DNA of 64,000 nt, taken from assembly GCA_002070055.1 (NCBI GenBank), contig MWCM01000001.1, positions 16,308 through 80,307 of the forward strand. Reading direction: 5' to 3'. The position numbers were made by a program, and so were the translations under genes. Every line of letters starts with the position of its first letter. The stretch's first letter is position 1. The notes beneath the pieces are model-generated. The model did not search any database and was not told the origin of the DNA. It saw only the letters and a list, made by a program, of their open reading frames with translations. Below are positions 4,926-59,318 of this stretch, piece by piece. Source of the stretch: a bacterium ADurb.Bin212 (GTDB lineage Bacteria; Patescibacteriota; UBA1384; XYA2-FULL-43-10).

Positions 4926-5924
4926 ATGTCAGAGGAAGAGAAGAAAGAAGGGATCGGCGGGATTCCGACCGAACTATTGCCATATGATGCCGGCAATGAT
5001 GATTTGGTTATGGGCAGGCAGGAAATAATGCTTGGGGAGGAAAGAGCCTGTGTTTTGGACGCATACACCAAAGCCGGCAAGCCAAATAGGCCGAACGAGG
5101 ATGCTTACGCCATAGTTCAAAGTGGAGCCCAAAAAGAGTTGCTGACAGCAGGTGTCTTCGATGGGATCTCCAGCGTAGTAGACCTGCCTGACTTAAAAGG
5201 TGTTAAAGGCGCCAGATTCGCTTCTCATTTTATAAGAATGCGCTTTTTAGAGTTGGCGGGCAACCCCGATATCGGTTTAAAGGATTTAATGATCGAGCTT
5301 AATCGTCTTCTTGGTGAGGCCAATTCCCAGCTTGAGGGGGCAGATTTTGACAAGCCAAGCACAGTTCCATCAACCACCGCTACCATGGTAAGAGTTAATA
5401 CTGTAGAAAACAAGATTGAAATCGCGGACTGTGCCGATTCGATATGCTTGGTATTTTATAAGGACGGGAGTTCGAAAGTGCTTTCTTTTGATACTAACCT
5501 ATTTCATATGGATGGTGGTCTTAAAAAAATTAGACCAGAGGAGTACAAACAAGCCAAAGATGAGGGAAGAAATGTGGCATGGGGTTTTGATAACAAAAAC
5601 AATCCCAAAGATGGTACTTATGGCACAGGAGCATTAAACGGTTCGGAGATGTTTGAGAGATACATTATGTCCGACCAAATAGATTTAGATGGTGTCGAGG
5701 CAATTTTCATGTCGTCTGACGGTATGTTGCCTCCGGATCTATCACAGTATGCCCCGGAAGATCGCAGGCAAATGCTACAAATTTTAAGGGAAGGTGGATG
5801 TGCGGCTTTAAAGGAAAGAGTCAACCAGGCATTTGAGTCTGGAGATCAAAGCAAATGGACGAGGCCATCGAGTCCAGATGATGCAACCGGAGTCTTTATT
5901 GATCTGAAACAAGTAACTGAATAG
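4926..5924 (+). CDS. PP2C-family protein serine/threonine phosphatase-like
   Basis: PNEDAYAI and VFDGISS motifs resemble the PP2C metal-binding motifs; 332 aa. Confidence 0.5.
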   Translation: MSEEEKKEGIGGIPTELLPYDAGNDDLVMGRQEIMLGEERACVLDAYTKAGKPNRPNEDAYAIVQSGAQKELLTAGVFDGISSVVDLPDLKGVKGARFASHFIRMRFLELAGNPDIGLKDLMIELNRLLGEANSQLEGADFDKPSTVPSTTATMVRVNTVENKIEIADCADSICLVFYKDGSSKVLSFDTNLFHMDGGLKKIRPEEYKQAKDEGRNVAWGFDNKNNPKDGTYGTGALNGSEMFERYIMSDQIDLDGVEAIFMSSDGMLPPDLSQYAPEDRRQMLQILREGGCAALKERVNQAFESGDQSKWTRPSSPDDATGVFIDLKQVTE

Positions 5925-5968: not shown

Positions 5969-7105
5969 GTGTTGAGCAATCAACAATCAAAAATCAAATT
6001 AGTGCAAATTATTGCTGATTCTGATCTTTCTGGTGGCCCAAGACATGTTTTGGGTCTGCTTTCTAGCATAAACAGATCAAAATTCGAGTGTTTTTTGATA
6101 TGCCCAAACGGAAACTTATCTCGCGAAGCCAAAGAGATCTCTCGCCTTGAGGTAATTAATATCGAGATGAGTTCGAAGTTTGATTTGGTAGCCATGAGTT
6201 CCATAAACAAAATTCTGTCCCAGATACAATCTCAGAACAATCCATTTGGTCCCATGATAGTACATACTCATGGCACCAGAGCCGGCTTTCTGGGGCGGAT
6301 GTCTCTTCCAAAAGGAGTTTTGAGTGTTTACACAGAGCATCGTTGGGACGCTGACTATCATTTGGAAAATCGTATAAACGAGTGGCTACAACTATATTGG
6401 CTTAAGAGGCTAAATCAAAAAACTCATTTAATAATCGCTGTTTCGAACTCGGTTAGAGATTTTTTAATAAACAGAAAACTGGCTCCTGATGCGCGCATTA
6501 GGGTTATACATAATGGAATAGATTTACAAAATGCAAAAAGCAAAATGCAAAAAGCAAAAAATAGCAAAGGGAATCATTTTATTATCGGGAATGTGGGAAA
6601 TTTAAACCACCAAAAAGGTCATGAGTATTTGATAGAGGCAATGCCAGAGATTCTGGAACACTACCCTCATGCCATGCTAGAGATAATTGGTGAGGGCGAG
6701 GAAAGAAAAAATTTAGAATCTAAAATTCAAGATTTAAAATTGGAGAGACATGTAACTCTTTTGGGTAAACAAGTCGACCCGATGTCATTTATGGCCAAAT
6801 GGGATCTTTTTGTTCTGCCCTCTGTCGCCGAAACCTTTGGCATAGTGGTTTTGGAGGCGATGAGCCAAAAACTGCCGGTTGTGGCCACACAAGTCGGTGG
6901 AGTGCCGGATATTATTAAACACAATAAAAACGGTATTTTGGTGTCTCCGCACAGTCCTGAGTCGATTGCCGAAGCAACCATTGAACTTTTGTCTCGTCCG
7001 GCGAAGATGGAACAGCTCGCCCGCAACGCCTCCGACAGAGTAAAAGATTTTGATTGGAAAAAGATTGTGAGCAAAGTGGAAAGGGAATATCTAGAACTAA
7101 TTTAA
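5969..7105 (+). CDS. glycosyltransferase family 4 (GT-B)
   Basis: N-terminal KLVQIIADSDLSGGPRHVLGL and C-terminal EAMSQKLPVVATQVGGVPDIIKHNKNGILV are typical GT4 motifs. Confidence 0.75.
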   Translation: MLSNQQSKIKLVQIIADSDLSGGPRHVLGLLSSINRSKFECFLICPNGNLSREAKEISRLEVINIEMSSKFDLVAMSSINKILSQIQSQNNPFGPMIVHTHGTRAGFLGRMSLPKGVLSVYTEHRWDADYHLENRINEWLQLYWLKRLNQKTHLIIAVSNSVRDFLINRKLAPDARIRVIHNGIDLQNAKSKMQKAKNSKGNHFIIGNVGNLNHQKGHEYLIEAMPEILEHYPHAMLEIIGEGEERKNLESKIQDLKLERHVTLLGKQVDPMSFMAKWDLFVLPSVAETFGIVVLEAMSQKLPVVATQVGGVPDIIKHNKNGILVSPHSPESIAEATIELLSRPAKMEQLARNASDRVKDFDWKKIVSKVEREYLELI

Positions 7106-7564
7106 AATTTTCAATTTAAAATTTAAAATAAATGATAAAAACAAAAAATGGCAAATGATAAAAACAAATATGACTTAGAAGATAGAACGGAGAAGTTTGG
7201 AGAAGATATAATTAAGCTATGCAAAAAAATAAAAATTACTATTTATACTGAGCCACTTATTAAACAGCTTATAAGGTCTGGCACAAGCGTCGGTGCAAAT
7301 TACATGGAAGCAAACGGAGCCTGTTCCAAAAAAGACTTCTGCAATAAAATATACATTTGTAAAAAAGAATCACAGGAGAGCAAACACTGGTTAAAGATGC
7401 TTATATCCGCTACATGTAATCATCACGATGAGATTAGTCAACTATTGGGCGAGGCACAGCAACTATCTATGATTTTTCATAAAATATCTTCATCAAGCAA
7501 AATTAATCATTAAGCATTTTAAATTAGAGATTTATTTTAAATTCTAAATTTTAAATTGAAAATT
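7106..7564. mobile_element. small TIR-flanked cassette carrying a four-helix-bundle gene
   Basis: Left arm 7106-7129 (aattttcaatttaaaatttaaaat) and the reverse complement of right arm 7541-7564 (aattttcaatttaaaatttagaat) match at 23 of 24 positions. The cassette exactly fills the gap between the GT4 stop and the next gene start. Confidence 0.5.
7148..7513 (+). CDS. four-helix-bundle protein (23S rRNA intervening-sequence protein family, TIGR02436-like)
   Basis: 121 aa; LIRSGTSVGANYMEA and downstream KDF...HWLKML resemble the motifs of the S23-ribosomal/four-helix-bundle family. Confidence 0.6.
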   Translation: MANDKNKYDLEDRTEKFGEDIIKLCKKIKITIYTEPLIKQLIRSGTSVGANYMEANGACSKKDFCNKIYICKKESQESKHWLKMLISATCNHHDEISQLLGEAQQLSMIFHKISSSSKINH

Positions 7565-7571
7565 ATTATTT

Positions 7572-8285
7572 ATGCTTTACGTAAATAAATTCAAAAATTC
7601 CGAACTTGTTCACTCTTCCACCCGCACACATCTTAAGGTGGAGGTTTTACGAAGTGTTCATGCCGAGAGGGTTTTGGTGCTCGCGCCTCATCCGGATGAT
7701 GACGTTTTTGGTTGTGGCGCATTGCTTCATCATCTGAGCTTAAACAAAGCTCATATTAAAAGTCTCGTTTTTTGTGGCGGATCCTTAGGCAACAATAATG
7801 GAGTCAGAGATTTGGATTTGGTTGCGACTCGCGAAAAAGAAGCTGTGAGCGCCTTGCGTGAAGTTGGCGCAGGAGAGGCAAATTTTCTGCGATACGGTGA
7901 TTTGAAGTTGGGCGAACATGATAATTTGTGGGAAAAAATTTATCACGAATTTCAAGTGTTCAAACCTGATTTGGTTTTAATGCCCGACGGAAATGATTGG
8001 AACGAAGATCATGTTGCAGTGTATAGTTCTGCTTTATTGGCTCAGCGCAAAATAAAGAAGGGAAAGCCTGCTATATGGGGATATTTTGTCTGGGGAATAA
8101 ACAGGCCTAGCTATTTATTTCCTTATAATGCGGGCACCAAAAACATTAAGATGTCGGCTATGGCCTGCCATAAAAGTCAGCTTAAAGTTAAAAGATACGA
8201 TGAAGCGATAATAGGTATGAACGAATACCTCGGCAAAGGCCTAGGCCTCGAGCATTTGGCGGAGGGATATAGGGAAATTTTCTGA
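7572..8285 (+). CDS. PIG-L/LmbE-family deacetylase
   Basis: LVLAPHPDDDVFGCGALL matches the zinc-binding HPDDE-type motif of PIG-L N-acetylglucosaminyl deacetylases. Confidence 0.7.
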   Translation: MLYVNKFKNSELVHSSTRTHLKVEVLRSVHAERVLVLAPHPDDDVFGCGALLHHLSLNKAHIKSLVFCGGSLGNNNGVRDLDLVATREKEAVSALREVGAGEANFLRYGDLKLGEHDNLWEKIYHEFQVFKPDLVLMPDGNDWNEDHVAVYSSALLAQRKIKKGKPAIWGYFVWGINRPSYLFPYNAGTKNIKMSAMACHKSQLKVKRYDEAIIGMNEYLGKGLGLEHLAEGYREIF

Positions 8286-8385
8286 CGAAAATTTCAATGC
8301 CAAATTTTTAAATCATTCTTTCTAATAAAATAAGCTTTTATCATTTCTAATTAGTAAAAAACTGAAATAAATCTCTTCAGTTATA

Positions 8386-8420
8386 AAAAAGCCCCCTCCT
8401 GAATGTATCAGGCAGGGGGC
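8386..8420 (-). terminator. rho-independent terminator of the GC-rich two-gene module
   Basis: The minus strand reads CCCCCTGCCTGATACATTCAGGAGGGGG then TTTTTT, immediately 3' of the stop at 8431. Confidence 0.7.
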
Positions 8421-8430
8421 GGGTTTTGGT

Positions 8431-8775
8431 TTACCGACCGGTGGCAAACCATGCGCGCACCAGCTCGGCTGCCAGGGCGCAGCCTTCCGGCTCGCAATGG
8501 CAGGTGACAGCCATGCGCTGGTGGGTACGGTCGATGATGACGATCCGATCGGGGTAGATCGCAATCTCATCGAAAGCCACCTCGTTGCCCTCCGGGTACT
8601 CGCGCCACCACGACTTGACTTCGGTCTCATTCAGCCAACCTCCCCAGTCGTCAGGGACACCGATGGCGTCCTGGTATCTCTGACCACCTACCCAGACCTC
8701 GTCGTCCGCGCAAGGGCTGTCACAGAGGTCACTTACGAACCCGCAGAACCGAAGTGCAGCGATCAGATTGAGCAT
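8431..8775 (-). CDS. hypothetical protein (GC-rich island, distal gene of pair)
   Basis: 114 aa, Trp/acidic-rich (DDWGGWLNETEVKSWWREYPEG); GCAGGAGAC RBS; about 62 % GC. Confidence 0.45.
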   Translation of the reverse strand: MLNLIAALRFCGFVSDLCDSPCADDEVWVGGQRYQDAIGVPDDWGGWLNETEVKSWWREYPEGNEVAFDEIAIYPDRIVIIDRTHQRMAVTCHCEPEGCALAAELVRAWFATGR

Positions 8776-8896
8776 ATTAGTCTCCTGCGTTTATGGCTCG
8801 CCAGCCTTAGGTTGTGAATGTTCGAGGCTAAACCTCGGAGGAGGGTGCGATCAGTTACGATCGTACCCGGTCCATCTGAGGTGAGTAGCTTTTTGG

Positions 8897-9160
8897 CTAC
8901 TCGGGTGGGAGGGTGCCGTGTTCGGCGAAGTAAGTGATAAGCTCAATAACCCGTTGGTGATTAAGAGCCGCCTCCTCTTCGCTGTCGGCGATATGTTCGA
9001 GGTTGTTGGTGTAGTCAAGCTCTTCGTTGATCCCTGGTCCGAACGCCATTGTCTCGTAATGGTTGCGATCGGTCGGGAGAACAGTGGAAACGAGGTATTC
9101 GTTTCCGTTGATGAACAGCTTGTTGCGGAAGACGCGAACTGTCTCAGAGCGAAATTTCAT
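8897..9160 (-). CDS. hypothetical protein (GC-rich island, proximal gene of pair)
   Basis: 87 aa with an AGGTGAG RBS; same strand as the 114-aa ORF 120 bp downstream, so probably co-transcribed. Confidence 0.45.
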   Translation of the reverse strand: MKFRSETVRVFRNKLFINGNEYLVSTVLPTDRNHYETMAFGPGINEELDYTNNLEHIADSEEEAALNHQRVIELITYFAEHGTLPPE

Positions 9161-9411
9161 TTATCTCACCTATTTGTTGTCATTGCCTTACGATGTTTCC
9201 GGCGCAAGCCGCTGTTTCATCGTAACGAAGCATTATAACATAACATCATAGAAGTGTCAACGATAACGACACAAATACTAAAAACAATATTAAAAACAAT
9301 CAGGCTTGACAAGAGGCTAGGAAGTGTGGTAAAATAAAGTAAAGTGACGAAGTATACGACACTAATGATAGTTAAAAGTTCATAAAGTTACTAAAGTGAA
9401 AAGTAGGTCGA

Positions 9412-20185: not shown

Positions 20186-21610
20186 ATGTGCTTAACAATA
20201 CCGGGAAAAATTAAATCGATTAAAGACGGCGTGGCGACAGTCGAAAATGGTTCCAGAACCGAGCAGATTGAGCTTGGAGTAGTTTTTGATGCCAAAGTAG
20301 GGGATTGGGTGCTTTATGCCACAAATCGCGCCGTGAGACTGATAGATGAGCAGGAGGCGCGTGAGATTATTGAGCTTCTTGAAGATAATTATCAACCGGT
20401 GGATATTGCTTCTCTACCGTTGAGGTATAAAAAGATTGTTTATAAAGTGAGAAACACTGAGAAAAATCAAAATATCAATTTAAAATCAAAAAATATTATT
20501 AATAGCAATTTAACAATCCAGCAATTTAACAATATTCACAAGAGCGATCTCGAATATCTACTACAGTTGAGAGGTAAAAATAATCTTGAAGCCTTTTACA
20601 GTGAGGCTAATGTCTTGCGTAAGAACATAATTAAAGACTTCGTCTGCATACACGGCATTGTAGAATTTTCTAACTATTGCAAGAATTGCTGTCTTTATTG
20701 CGGTATAGGGAGCAAAGCTAAAATACGACGTTATCGTATGACTTCCGACGAAATATTCATGGCAGTCGAACAGGCGGTCGAATTTGATGGTTATAAATTG
20801 GTGGTTTTGCAAAGTGGAGAGGACGATTATTATAGCGATGACGAGCTCGTGTCATTGATAGATAGGATCAAAAAAGATTTAAGAGTTTTTGTCTTCATTT
20901 CGGTGGGAGAGCGGTCTAAAAACTTTTATAAAAGAGCATTCGAAGCGGGGGCAAGCGGCTCACTTTTTCGTTTTGAAACCTCGAATCCGGAGTTATATAG
21001 CCGAATGCATCCGAATCATGATTTACAAAGCAGACTCGAATCTATACAAATGCAAATCGAGATTGGATATTATTTGGCAAGTGGTGGTTTAATCGGCTTA
21101 CCAGGTCAGACTATCTCTGATATGGCAGATGATCTTTTGTTGGTGAAGAAACTTCGGATTCCAATGTTGTCGAGTGGACCCTGGATTCCAAGTTTGACTA
21201 GCCCGCTTGGAATAATAACCAATAACCAAGGCACAAGAAACAAACAAATTCCAAACGGTGTCATTGCGAGGGACGAAGCAATCTTTAACAATTTAGCAAT
21301 AAAACAATTTAGCAATAATGAAAAATTGCGTCTGACTCTTAACTATATCGCGGCGGCGCGCTTTTTAATGCCGGAGATCAAAATTCCTGTGACTACAGCT
21401 TTGGAAACATTAGACCAAGAGAGCGGACGACACAAAGCCTTGTTGGCCGGTGCCAACGCCTTAATGTTTAATATTACTCCGGAAAAATACCGAGGCGATT
21501 ATAATTTATACGATCATAAATATATAGAACGGGAGAAAGTTTGGCAAAAATACGGGCTCTTTAAAGGAGAGGAGAGTTACGAGATGCTAGAAGATAGGTT
21601 AAAGATCTAA
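20186..21610 (+). CDS. HypC/HupF-like N-terminal domain fused to a BioB/HydE/PylB-type radical SAM domain
   Basis: N-terminus MCLTIPGKIKSIKDGVATV...VGDWVL matches the HypC MCLxIP signature. Downstream, NYCKNCCLYCGIG is a CxxxCxxC motif in the C(K/R)NNCxYCG style of BioB/HydE/PylB, and GGLIGLPGQT is a family-like glycine motif. Contains two in-frame repeat-derived inserts (20506-20533; 21224-21318). Confidence 0.55.
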   Translation: MCLTIPGKIKSIKDGVATVENGSRTEQIELGVVFDAKVGDWVLYATNRAVRLIDEQEAREIIELLEDNYQPVDIASLPLRYKKIVYKVRNTEKNQNINLKSKNIINSNLTIQQFNNIHKSDLEYLLQLRGKNNLEAFYSEANVLRKNIIKDFVCIHGIVEFSNYCKNCCLYCGIGSKAKIRRYRMTSDEIFMAVEQAVEFDGYKLVVLQSGEDDYYSDDELVSLIDRIKKDLRVFVFISVGERSKNFYKRAFEAGASGSLFRFETSNPELYSRMHPNHDLQSRLESIQMQIEIGYYLASGGLIGLPGQTISDMADDLLLVKKLRIPMLSSGPWIPSLTSPLGIITNNQGTRNKQIPNGVIARDEAIFNNLAIKQFSNNEKLRLTLNYIAAARFLMPEIKIPVTTALETLDQESGRHKALLAGANALMFNITPEKYRGDYNLYDHKYIEREKVWQKYGLFKGEESYEMLEDRLKI

Positions 21611-39962: not shown

Positions 39963-40066
39963 TTTAAACTGAGTTTTGAATGTTAAAGTTAAAATGCTTA
40001 AACTATATAAATTGTAAATTGGACATTTATTAAAAATTGCTAAATTGAAAATTCAAAACAATAAAT

Positions 40067-52669: not shown

Positions 52670-53794
52670 ATGAATAAACTTGTTTTAATAGACGGTAATG
52701 CTATCATTCACAGGGCCTACCACAGCATGCCAAAAACACTAAGCACACGCAAAGGAGAGCAGACAAATGCCATCTATGGCTTTGCCATCACTCTAATAAA
52801 GGTGCTTGAAGATTTAAAGCCGCAATATTTAGCGGCGACTTTTGATTTGGCTGGGCCGACTTTTCGCCATGAGGTTTTTGAGGAGTATAAGGCCACCAGG
52901 GTAAAGGCCGATCAGGAGCTTTATGATCAAATTCCTCGCGTAAAGCAGTTGGTGGAGACAATGGGCATACCGATATATGAGAAAGATGGTTTCGAAGCGG
53001 ATGATGTGATTGGAACGATTGTGGAAATAATTCAAAAATCAAAAATCAAAAATCAAAAGTACAATTCAAAAGTAAAAAATAAAAAATTTATTTCAAGTGA
53101 AACGAAGGAGCCTAATACTTTAGCAATAGAACAATTTAACAATTTAACAATATATATAGTAAGTGGGGACAAAGACATTTTTCAACTCATAAACGGCAAT
53201 GTCAAAGTGTATAATCTTAAAAAAGGATTGAGTCAGACGCAAATTGTTGATACTGAGGTAATCCAAAATGAATATAATTTACAGCCATCAGATTTTATCG
53301 ATTTGAAGGCTTTGGCGGGTGACCCAAGTGATAATATCCCAGGGGTGCCTGGGATTGGACCAAAGACAGCTACAGAATTGATACAAAGATTTGATACTTT
53401 GGAAAAGATTTATGAGAATATCACTAAATTGCTCAATTGCCCAATTGCTGATTTAAACAATTTAACAATACAACAATTTAACAATGAAACGATCGAAGTG
53501 GTTGCCAAGGAGCTTGGCCTTAAGCCTAGGGTTGTGAAACTGTTGATTGACAATAAGGAGCAAGCCTTTCTTTCTCAGCATCTTGCTACAATTCACAAAG
53601 ATGTTCCAATTGATTTTGATCTGGATAAGTGCAAGTGGGGAATGTATGATAAAAGTAAATTGAGCCAGTTGTTTGAAGAATTGGGCTTTCAATCACTCCT
53701 TCGAAGATTTGCCAACAACGCAACGGAAGAACAAAAAAAACAAGAGCAAAGAAGCGAGGCGCAAAAAAAAGATGAGCAATTAAAACTACTATGA
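52670..53794 (+). CDS. polA: DNA polymerase I, 5'-3' exonuclease (FEN-like) part
   Basis: LVLIDGNAIIHRAYHS...GFEADDVIGT...SGDKDIFQL...PGVPGIGPKTA are the 53EXO motifs. Ends at TGA 53792-53794, 1 nt before the ATG of the polymerase ORF, in a different frame. Carries about 35 aa of repeat-derived insert (53040-53151). Confidence 0.8.
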   Translation: MNKLVLIDGNAIIHRAYHSMPKTLSTRKGEQTNAIYGFAITLIKVLEDLKPQYLAATFDLAGPTFRHEVFEEYKATRVKADQELYDQIPRVKQLVETMGIPIYEKDGFEADDVIGTIVEIIQKSKIKNQKYNSKVKNKKFISSETKEPNTLAIEQFNNLTIYIVSGDKDIFQLINGNVKVYNLKKGLSQTQIVDTEVIQNEYNLQPSDFIDLKALAGDPSDNIPGVPGIGPKTATELIQRFDTLEKIYENITKLLNCPIADLNNLTIQQFNNETIEVVAKELGLKPRVVKLLIDNKEQAFLSQHLATIHKDVPIDFDLDKCKWGMYDKSKLSQLFEELGFQSLLRRFANNATEEQKKQEQRSEAQKKDEQLKLL

Positions 53795-59071: not shown

Positions 59072-59318
59072 AATTTGTTACACTTAAATTTAAAATTTAA
59101 AATTTAAAATTTAAAAAGCTATTAAATCAAAAATTCTAAATTATAAAAGCCAACTGTAACAGGAATAAAATAGCACATATATTGACAGGCGTCAACAAAG
59201 TGGCTATATTGAAGGGCCTTGACAATAGGTGGTAGGCGTTAGGAATTAGCTTCTTAGGATCAGTTTTGAAATTATTTTGCTAAAAAGCTAACAAGCTAAT
59301 ACCTAAAAGCTGACATAT

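Follow-up and report, generated by a model that had tools for sequence, protein, structure and literature searches.

Comparison of the 64,000-nt stretch of DNA analysed here (hereafter, the window) with related genomes shows that a small four-helix-bundle (4HB) gene and the inverted repeats on either side of it evidently constitute one copy of an insertion-type element, which is widespread in Patescibacteria and is both gained and lost. We regard gene and repeats as a single insertion-type cassette because such arms accompany 71 of 84 homologous copies, because the copies occupy unrelated sites, because two pairs of filled and empty sites are at hand, and because ORF-less derivatives exist. 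The interpretation that we favor, with a probability of roughly 0.6, is that of a hairpin cassette resembling the intervening sequences (IVSs) of rRNA genes, which resides in operon spacers, is transcribed by read-through and has arms that pair in the RNA, where it is probably processed by RNase III.

Anatomy of the cassette

The features to which we refer throughout are the following (window coordinates).

5969-7105, plus strand: upstream host gene, a GT4 glycosyltransferase; stop codon at 7103-7105
7098-7133, plus strand: left arm of tandem AATTTNN-type units; covers the final two GT4 codons and the TAA stop; 24-nt core at 7106-7129
7105-7109, plus strand: left junction of the 434-nt indel, AAATT; direct repeat of 7539-7543, present as a single copy in L166
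7110-7543, plus strand: 434-nt segment comprising the inner arms and the ORF; missing in the near-identical strain contig L166
7148-7513, plus strand: 121-aa 4HB gene (PF05635 / TIGR02436)
7530-7565, plus strand: right arm, reverse-complementary to the left one (86% over 36 nt); its end lies 6 nt ahead of the PIG-L ATG (7572)
7539-7543, plus strand: right junction of the 434-nt indel, AAATT
7572-8285, plus strand: downstream host gene, a PIG-L family deacetylase; ATG at 7572, without a Shine-Dalgarno-like motif in front
59076-59161, minus strand: hairpin without an ORF, with arms of the cassette type, in the rpsT leader, directly upstream of the rpsT ATG (59071)

Read directly from the sequence, the left core arm (7106-7129) runs AATTTTCAATTTAAAATTTAAAAT, and the right core arm (7541-7564), once reverse-complemented, runs AATTTTCAATTTAAAATTTAGAAT. 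The two match at 23 of 24 positions and differ at one, as the initial annotation had reported, and a repeat search lengthens the pair to 36 nt at 86% (7098-7133 / 7530-7565); the same two arms are also 84% alike as direct repeats. The cassette had further been described as filling the gap between its neighbors, which agrees with the positions of the GT4 stop codon (7103-7105) and the PIG-L ATG (7572): it fills the spacer between a host stop and a host start. Its GC content is 24-35%, as opposed to ~44% in the neighboring genes and 41% in the window as a whole. Since identical copies occur in four independent assemblies, the cassette is not an assembly artefact.

Two minor features of this region may be recorded here. 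A perfect 16-nt direct repeat, AAATGATAAAAACAAA, occurs at window 7130-7145 and 7153-7168, across the 4HB start codon; the 5' end of the gene seems to have been duplicated over 23 nt, and a short upstream ORF in another frame results. A high-GC island (window 8300-9250; 0.54-0.62 vs 0.41 for the window) lies between PIG-L and a TrmB-like gene and has small ORFs that have no Pfam match (8431-8775 and 8897-9160 on the minus strand, 8497-8817 on the plus strand), and the second strain (L166) carries this island as well.

The arms are heptamer arrays conserved across the phylum

Homologues of the 4HB protein at 53-77% identity led to 80 loci, fetched from species-representative genomes and nearly all from Patescibacteria, and 84 gene copies from ~75 Patescibacteria genomes had enough flanking sequence for a test of the arms. 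The inverted-repeat score was that of the best ungapped inverted match of the upstream flank to the downstream flank (130 nt each), with 30 local shuffles for each copy. The window copy scores 21 against a maximum of 10 in local shuffles of its 130-nt flanks. In 71 of the 84 copies the flanking inverted repeats beat every shuffle, and the median over all 84 is 15, compared with 8 for the direct-repeat control. The arms are thus conserved around the 4HB gene across the phylum, and the view of the initial annotation that these are genuine terminal inverted repeats is borne out both by the shuffles and by the family-wide arms. Within the window, the arm pattern has 7 matches at up to 3 mismatches, against none in 100 shuffles. 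Over the collected loci, 131 matches of the arm motif fall within 120 nt of the 86 genes, a total of 20.6 kb, as against 33 in the other ~330 kb, which amounts to a ~60-fold enrichment.

The upstream arms consist of tandem heptamers (AATTTTC, AATTTAC, AATTTTG or AATTTAA), the complements of which stand downstream. There are 4-5 AATTTNN units per arm, the arms mostly lie within ~30 nt of the start and stop codons, the ORF begins 0-30 nt past the left arm, and whole elements measure 430-520 bp, with 5'-AATTT and AAATT-3' as their termini throughout the family. An octamer unit (aatttaaa x4) had been proposed earlier; a search with an octamer regex found almost nothing, whereas one with a heptamer regex, in keeping with the actual period of 7, was successful. 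Irregular units (for example an 8-mer inside an array) are mirrored in the partner arm, and arms pair better with their own partner than with arms of other loci (median 17.5 vs 13.5, p=4e-9). Cross-locus scores are high as well, because the AATT core is kept family-wide. At the variable heptamer positions, register-anchored covariation stands at 45.7% vs 39.8%, a small excess that is diluted by register ambiguity and on which we place no weight.

Some of the cassette-bearing MAGs bear titles such as Gammaproteobacteria, Bdellovibrionales, Ignavibacteriaceae, Chloroflexia or Undinarchaeales (L018, L020, L036, L039, L043, L048, L057, L060, L062, L069, L071 and L079), which suggests mislabelled or contaminated bins, or else horizontal transfer.

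Cassettes lie almost always in sense orientation to the host operon

At the 66 sites where both neighboring genes are on one strand, the 4HB gene is sense to them in 65 cases and antisense in 1; adjacent genes in these loci are co-oriented in 85% of cases, and a randomly oriented insertion would give 50%. The median spacing is 51 nt between the end of the upstream gene and the 4HB start codon, and 70 nt between the 4HB stop codon and the gene that follows. The sites themselves are unrelated (T2SSE/pilin, GHMP kinase/GT2, TraG/amidase, SmpB/PLD, SAM riboswitch/metK), even the nearest homologues, which also have the most similar arms, are found at unrelated sites, and one 150-kb contig carries at least three copies. 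The copy at L007 2334-2905 stands between a SAM riboswitch, complete with its terminator hairpin, and the metK start codon. This cassette must belong to the host transcription unit, and, since it lies between the riboswitch terminator and metK, cassette and metK should both be under riboswitch control.

A scan of the window cassette for intrinsic-terminator-like sites gave none. Its left arm contains weak sigma-70-like, that is promoter-like, hexamers, and might conceivably hold a promoter of the cassette's own, in which case the left arm would be untranscribed. In an exploratory count over L005-L084, Shine-Dalgarno-like motifs preceded 27% of ordinary genes, 4% of 4HB genes and 9% of the genes just after a cassette. 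Rfam searches of the window and of 20 related loci returned no rRNA, and a permissive threshold gave no match in 6900-7800.

ORF-less hairpins share the arms of full cassettes

Many of the motif matches away from 4HB genes belong to arm pairs, spaced by 100-150 nt, whose folds are long hairpins. In their arms they match the 4HB cassette found in the same genome (over as much as 57 nt at 95%, or 36 nt at 100%), some of them retain the first and last few codons of the ORF, and one has just ATG-ACA-CAA-TTT-TAA between its arms. By their sequence, then, these hairpins look like internal-deletion derivatives of cassettes.

The window contains one of them in the rpsT leader. It folds at -23.5 kcal/mol (z -4.4) on the minus strand vs -11.3 on the plus strand, its arms match those of cassettes, and the tract at 59087-59117 is (AATTTAA)x4. 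What the initial annotation had taken for a possible solo remnant of a terminal repeat is instead an entire hairpin, on the minus strand and without an ORF, that belongs to the arm family of the cassette. When polymorphism was sought in the second strain, the hairpin there proved identical.

A further arm family, with AAATCTC / GAGATTT units, was seen as an ORF-less hairpin at the GT4/PIG-L junction of L086 (2390-2498) and as a solo array right behind the 4HB cassette in L170 (2917-2981). Successive elements seem to pile up in spacers.

Filled and empty sites point to insertion and to loss by deletion

In distant relatives, the GT4-PIG-L gene pair is conserved in more than 20 metagenome loci, and at ~18 of the 23 loci examined GT4 and PIG-L either abut or overlap; comparison with relatives at this junction, which had been proposed as a check on the cassette, thus yielded empty sites, together with a strain (L166) that lacks 7110-7543. 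A second family member, the P0048 cassette, was seen on more than 24 contigs, where its neighbors are a type IV pilin gene and a large gene, and in its relatives, with pilins 82-87% identical, these two genes are 2-7 nt apart and there are no arms. Presence/absence polymorphism between related genomes is therefore found at two loci (L166 vs the window; L170 vs L177 and L183), and these comparisons show insertion of the cassette between genes that otherwise abut or overlap. A search with the GT4 protein for further alleles of the window locus gave no new ones.

Contig L166 merits closer attention. It encodes an identical PIG-L protein, comes from a strain about 99.5% identical, and over ~5 kb is identical to the window save for two short patches and the 434 nt that it lacks. 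Of the left arm it retains the outermost 12 nt, and of the right arm, with two substitutions, the outermost 22 nt. AAATT is found at both indel junctions in the window and once in L166, and the borders of the indel lie inside the arms (12 nt and 22 nt in), at unequal depths in the two halves of the inverted repeat. Sites that are truly empty lack any arm-like sequence. Because of the asymmetric borders, the AAATT junctions and the retained arm ends, which true empty sites do not have, we read L166 as a secondary deletion: it looks like the product of deletion between short AAATT repeats in the arms, and not like a pre-insertion site or the excision of a transposon by its terminal repeats. The case shows how a cassette can apparently be lost by deletion between short repeats inside its arms, leaving a scar or an ORF-less hairpin.

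The indel sits in a patch of clustered differences, mostly at third codon positions (6994-7038, 7070, 7549, 7551). The two patches that distinguish L166 from the window, at 5462-5498 and 6994-7038, hold 5 and 12 mismatches, the second mostly with third-codon spacing. Such mosaic differences are typical of recombination tracts and suggest two haplotypes exchanged by homologous recombination. With the indel lying inside a recombination patch, it is likely that the cassette spreads within populations by homologous recombination of its flanks.

Could the element instead be a non-autonomous DNA transposon, i.e. a MITE with a passenger gene, whose termini (AATTT...AAATT) are bound by a transposase acting in trans that moves it by cut-and-paste and leaves a 5-bp AAATT duplication? 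This would account for the terminal inverted repeats, which it indeed has in common with MITEs, and for their family-wide 5'-AATTT / AAATT-3' ends, for the AAATT that stands at either end of the 434-nt indel and as a single copy in L166, for ORF-less miniature copies sharing arms with the ORF-bearing copy of the same genome, and for the many unrelated insertion sites. We nevertheless think it unlikely. The borders of the indel are asymmetric, falling within the inverted repeat by 12 nt on one side and 22 nt on the other, and a target-site duplication, for which the initial annotation had suggested to look, is not seen family-wide (the shared word averages 4.28, compared with 4.11 for the control; p=0.07). 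Furthermore, a 65:1 sense orientation is unusual for cut-and-paste elements, copies within one genome differ in their arms while their synonymous divergence is saturated, the Pfam list shows no transposase within +/-10 kb of the window copy, and a search of viral contigs gave no relatives. The earlier suggestion that the family moves as a miniature cassette thus holds insofar as gene and arms act as one insertion-type unit; with no family-wide target-site duplication, asymmetric borders and no transposase seen nearby, it finds no support in the form in which it was put.

The closest relative, L085 (61% aa identity), has at the GT4/PIG-L junction (726-1308) a GxxExxY gene (TIGR04256) flanked by a 40-nt inverted repeat of its own (775-814 / 1257-1296) with CACAGAT-like units, which are reminiscent of the GACAGAT heptamers of the Coxiella IVS. 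It thus resembles our cassette in its junction and its inverted-repeat flanks, but differs in protein fold class and in its CACAGAT-type arms, and is the single case examined; it suggests that armed small-gene cassettes with other cargo exist.

A proposed hairpin in the operon transcript

Our favored reading of an IVS-like hairpin cassette can be spelled out as follows. Read-through from the host operon would transcribe the cassette. Its two arms would then pair in the transcript as an A-U-rich stem of some 30-36 bp, with the ORF looped out and the stop codon of one host gene brought close to the start codon of the next. By analogy with rRNA IVSs, this stem could be a substrate of RNase III. 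The 4HB protein, which is Avd-like and likely binds nucleic acids, may serve the maintenance or spread of the element. Read-through transcription, formation of the stem in vivo, cleavage by RNase III and a role of the protein at the arms are what we infer.

Both the MFE and the centroid fold of 7085-7580 have the arms paired and the ORF looped out, with a z-score of only -1.3 for the fold of the whole cassette. The arms carry no strand-specific RNA signal (58 G.U vs 80 A.C mismatches), their sense and antisense duplex energies do not differ significantly, and the ORF-less hairpins have no consistent strand asymmetry. That there is neither a bias of G.U over A.C nor an asymmetry in strand energy may speak against a role of the arms solely at the RNA level. 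The AATT core is conserved beyond what pairing needs, and this suggests some sequence-specific partner, at the level of either DNA or RNA.

These observations lend some weight to the possibility that the arms are DNA-level arrays of protein-binding sites, operators or a promoter for the 4HB gene, bound for example by a pentameric 4HB protein, and that their symmetry reflects binding sites without any hairpin. The persistence of the AATT core across very divergent hosts in which synonymous sites are saturated, the 4-5 repeats per arm, the promoter-like hexamers in the left arm and the lack of G.U bias would all suit such arrays. We judge this to be quite improbable, however, as it leaves unexplained why a mirrored array is retained past the stop codon, why arm pairs without an ORF survive in the form of tight hairpins, why arms match their own partner better than those of other loci and mirror its irregular units, and why the orientation within operons is strictly sense.

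The 4HB protein is conserved under selection

The ORF at 7148-7513 scores 57.1 bits against PF05635 (23S_rRNA_IVP; cut-off 33.8) and 76.8 bits against TIGR02436 (cut-off 24), and these scores above the curated cut-offs vindicate its initial assignment as a TIGR02436-like four-helix-bundle protein. To our knowledge, a function has been assigned in this very large family (PF05635/TIGR02436) only for the Avd protein of diversity-generating retroelements (DGRs). An AF2 monomer model of the 121-aa protein has four helices at a pLDDT of 91. Foldseek aligns this model with 2RLD (TM 0.72-0.85), which is also matched by profile search (E 2.5e-18), with 2GSC (TM 0.73-0.79) and, more distantly, with DGR Avd (8UB7_E and 4DWL, TM about 0.7).

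Between copies, pS is 0.7-0.9 (saturated) and pN 0.14-0.36, and the ORF is intact in 88 of 92 copies. This shows strong purifying selection on the protein across copies. Saturated pS with low pN and 88 intact ORFs argues that the 4HB protein is functional, and in this it would be unlike the decaying ORF of the Coxiella IVS. Searches of PADLOC and PHROGs with the protein gave no matches. It has a K-x6-H motif (K73...H80), which might suggest a HEPN-like RNase; an identity as such an RNase found no support in the literature searched, and is not claimed here.

That the gene is the Avd accessory protein of a DGR is suggested by the predicted fold, which resembles Avd at a TM of about 0.7 (8UB7_E, 4DWL), and by the assignment of Avd-like proteins to PF05635 (PMC10053308). 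The four-helix bundle is indeed of the same superfamily, but the cassette has no template/variable repeats and no reverse transcriptase nearby (none among the called genes within +/-10 kb in the precomputed Pfam list), its neighbors here are GT4 and PIG-L, and in 80 other loci they are unrelated housekeeping genes, all of which makes this explanation very improbable. Finally, a chance resemblance of A/T-rich intergenic DNA around an ordinary resident gene, which the low GC of the region (24-32%) and the 84% likeness of the arms as direct repeats might suggest, and which the initial annotation had named as the case (A/T low complexity, no other copies, no empty sites) that would undo its proposal, has next to no probability, given that local shuffles never reach the observed score, that the same layout surrounds 71 of 84 homologues, that the motif is ~60-fold enriched at gene flanks, and that empty sites exist.

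Relation to known elements

The PF05635/TIGR02436 family, rRNA IVSs and the rRNA counterparts in CPR are already known. The Coxiella IVS measures 428 nt, has an inverted-repeat stem and tandem heptamers ahead of its ORF, and is cut by RNase III in the stem (PMC4990558). The likeness of our cassette to the ORF-bearing 23S rRNA IVSs of Coxiella burnetii and Leptospira extends to a length of about 430-490 nt, to terminal inverted repeats that form a stem, to a roughly 120-aa PF05635 four-helix-bundle ORF lying in sense in the loop, to short tandem heptamers just ahead of the ORF (GACAGAT in Coxiella, AATTTNN here), and to a sporadic distribution suggesting horizontal spread (PMC4990558). The cassette thus has the terminal repeats and the sense ORF of an rRNA IVS, but it lies between protein-coding genes of an operon, here GT4 and PIG-L, and not inside a helix of a 16S or 23S rRNA gene. 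In Coxiella, moreover, the ORF is decaying and probably untranslated, whereas the cassette ORF is intact and under purifying selection, and the cleavage by RNase III described there is a prediction for the cassette. The rRNA insertions of CPR bacteria (J Bacteriol 2024, PMC11270868) belong to the same phylum and carry ORFs of the same protein family (23S_rRNA_IVP, PF05635); they are inside 16S/23S genes, and the accessible part of that report describes neither arms nor free-standing copies.

With MITEs the cassette shares not only terminal inverted repeats but also short ORF-less derivatives, a multitude of sites and presence/absence polymorphism; it differs from them in carrying a conserved non-transposase gene, in having no consistent target-site duplication and no partner transposase within +/-10 kb, in its strictly sense orientation, and in arms that are heptamer arrays and not unique terminal sequence. 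Its ORF-less members, as intergenic hairpins inside transcription units, recall REP/BIME palindromes, but REPs enclose no gene and are mobilised by RAYT transposases. From integron cassettes it is set apart by half-arms on both sides of the ORF, by single housekeeping neighbors and by the lack of an integrase nearby. The literature that we searched contained no free-standing heptamer-armed 4HB cassettes, ORF-less hairpin derivatives or strict sense orientation within operons, no GxxExxY cassettes bounded by inverted repeats, and no description of MITEs or hairpin repeats in Patescibacteria.

A broader proposal, which we put forward tentatively and would ourselves rather bet against, is that heptamer-armed 4HB cassettes represent a distinct and hitherto undescribed class of mobile element, with rRNA IVSs as no more than the special case of an insertion into rRNA. 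The hairpin would render an insertion within a transcription unit phenotypically silent, either through excision by RNase III or by holding stop and start codons together, and an Avd-like pentameric protein would recognize the arms and drive maintenance or copying without a conventional transposase.

The origin and movement of rRNA IVSs have been debated since the early 1990s (hypotheses reviewed in PMC4990558). If armed 4HB cassettes are common, selectively maintained residents of operon spacers in Patescibacteria, the question of IVS origin becomes testable outside the ribosome, with defined arms, ORF-less derivatives and natural filled and empty alleles at hand, and with predictions on offer for RNase III cleavage, for whether the protein binds the arms and for how the host gene downstream is expressed. 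There is also a bearing on the annotation of CPR genomes, in that cassettes and hairpin scars occupy spacers, sit in riboswitch-controlled leaders and may pass for promoters or terminators. In the window itself, heptamer-type arrays (NNAAATT or CAATTNN) stand immediately upstream of start codons at 39990-40065, 53427-53490 and 20490-20540, without a clear partner arm; these unpaired arrays may be scars of older cassettes.
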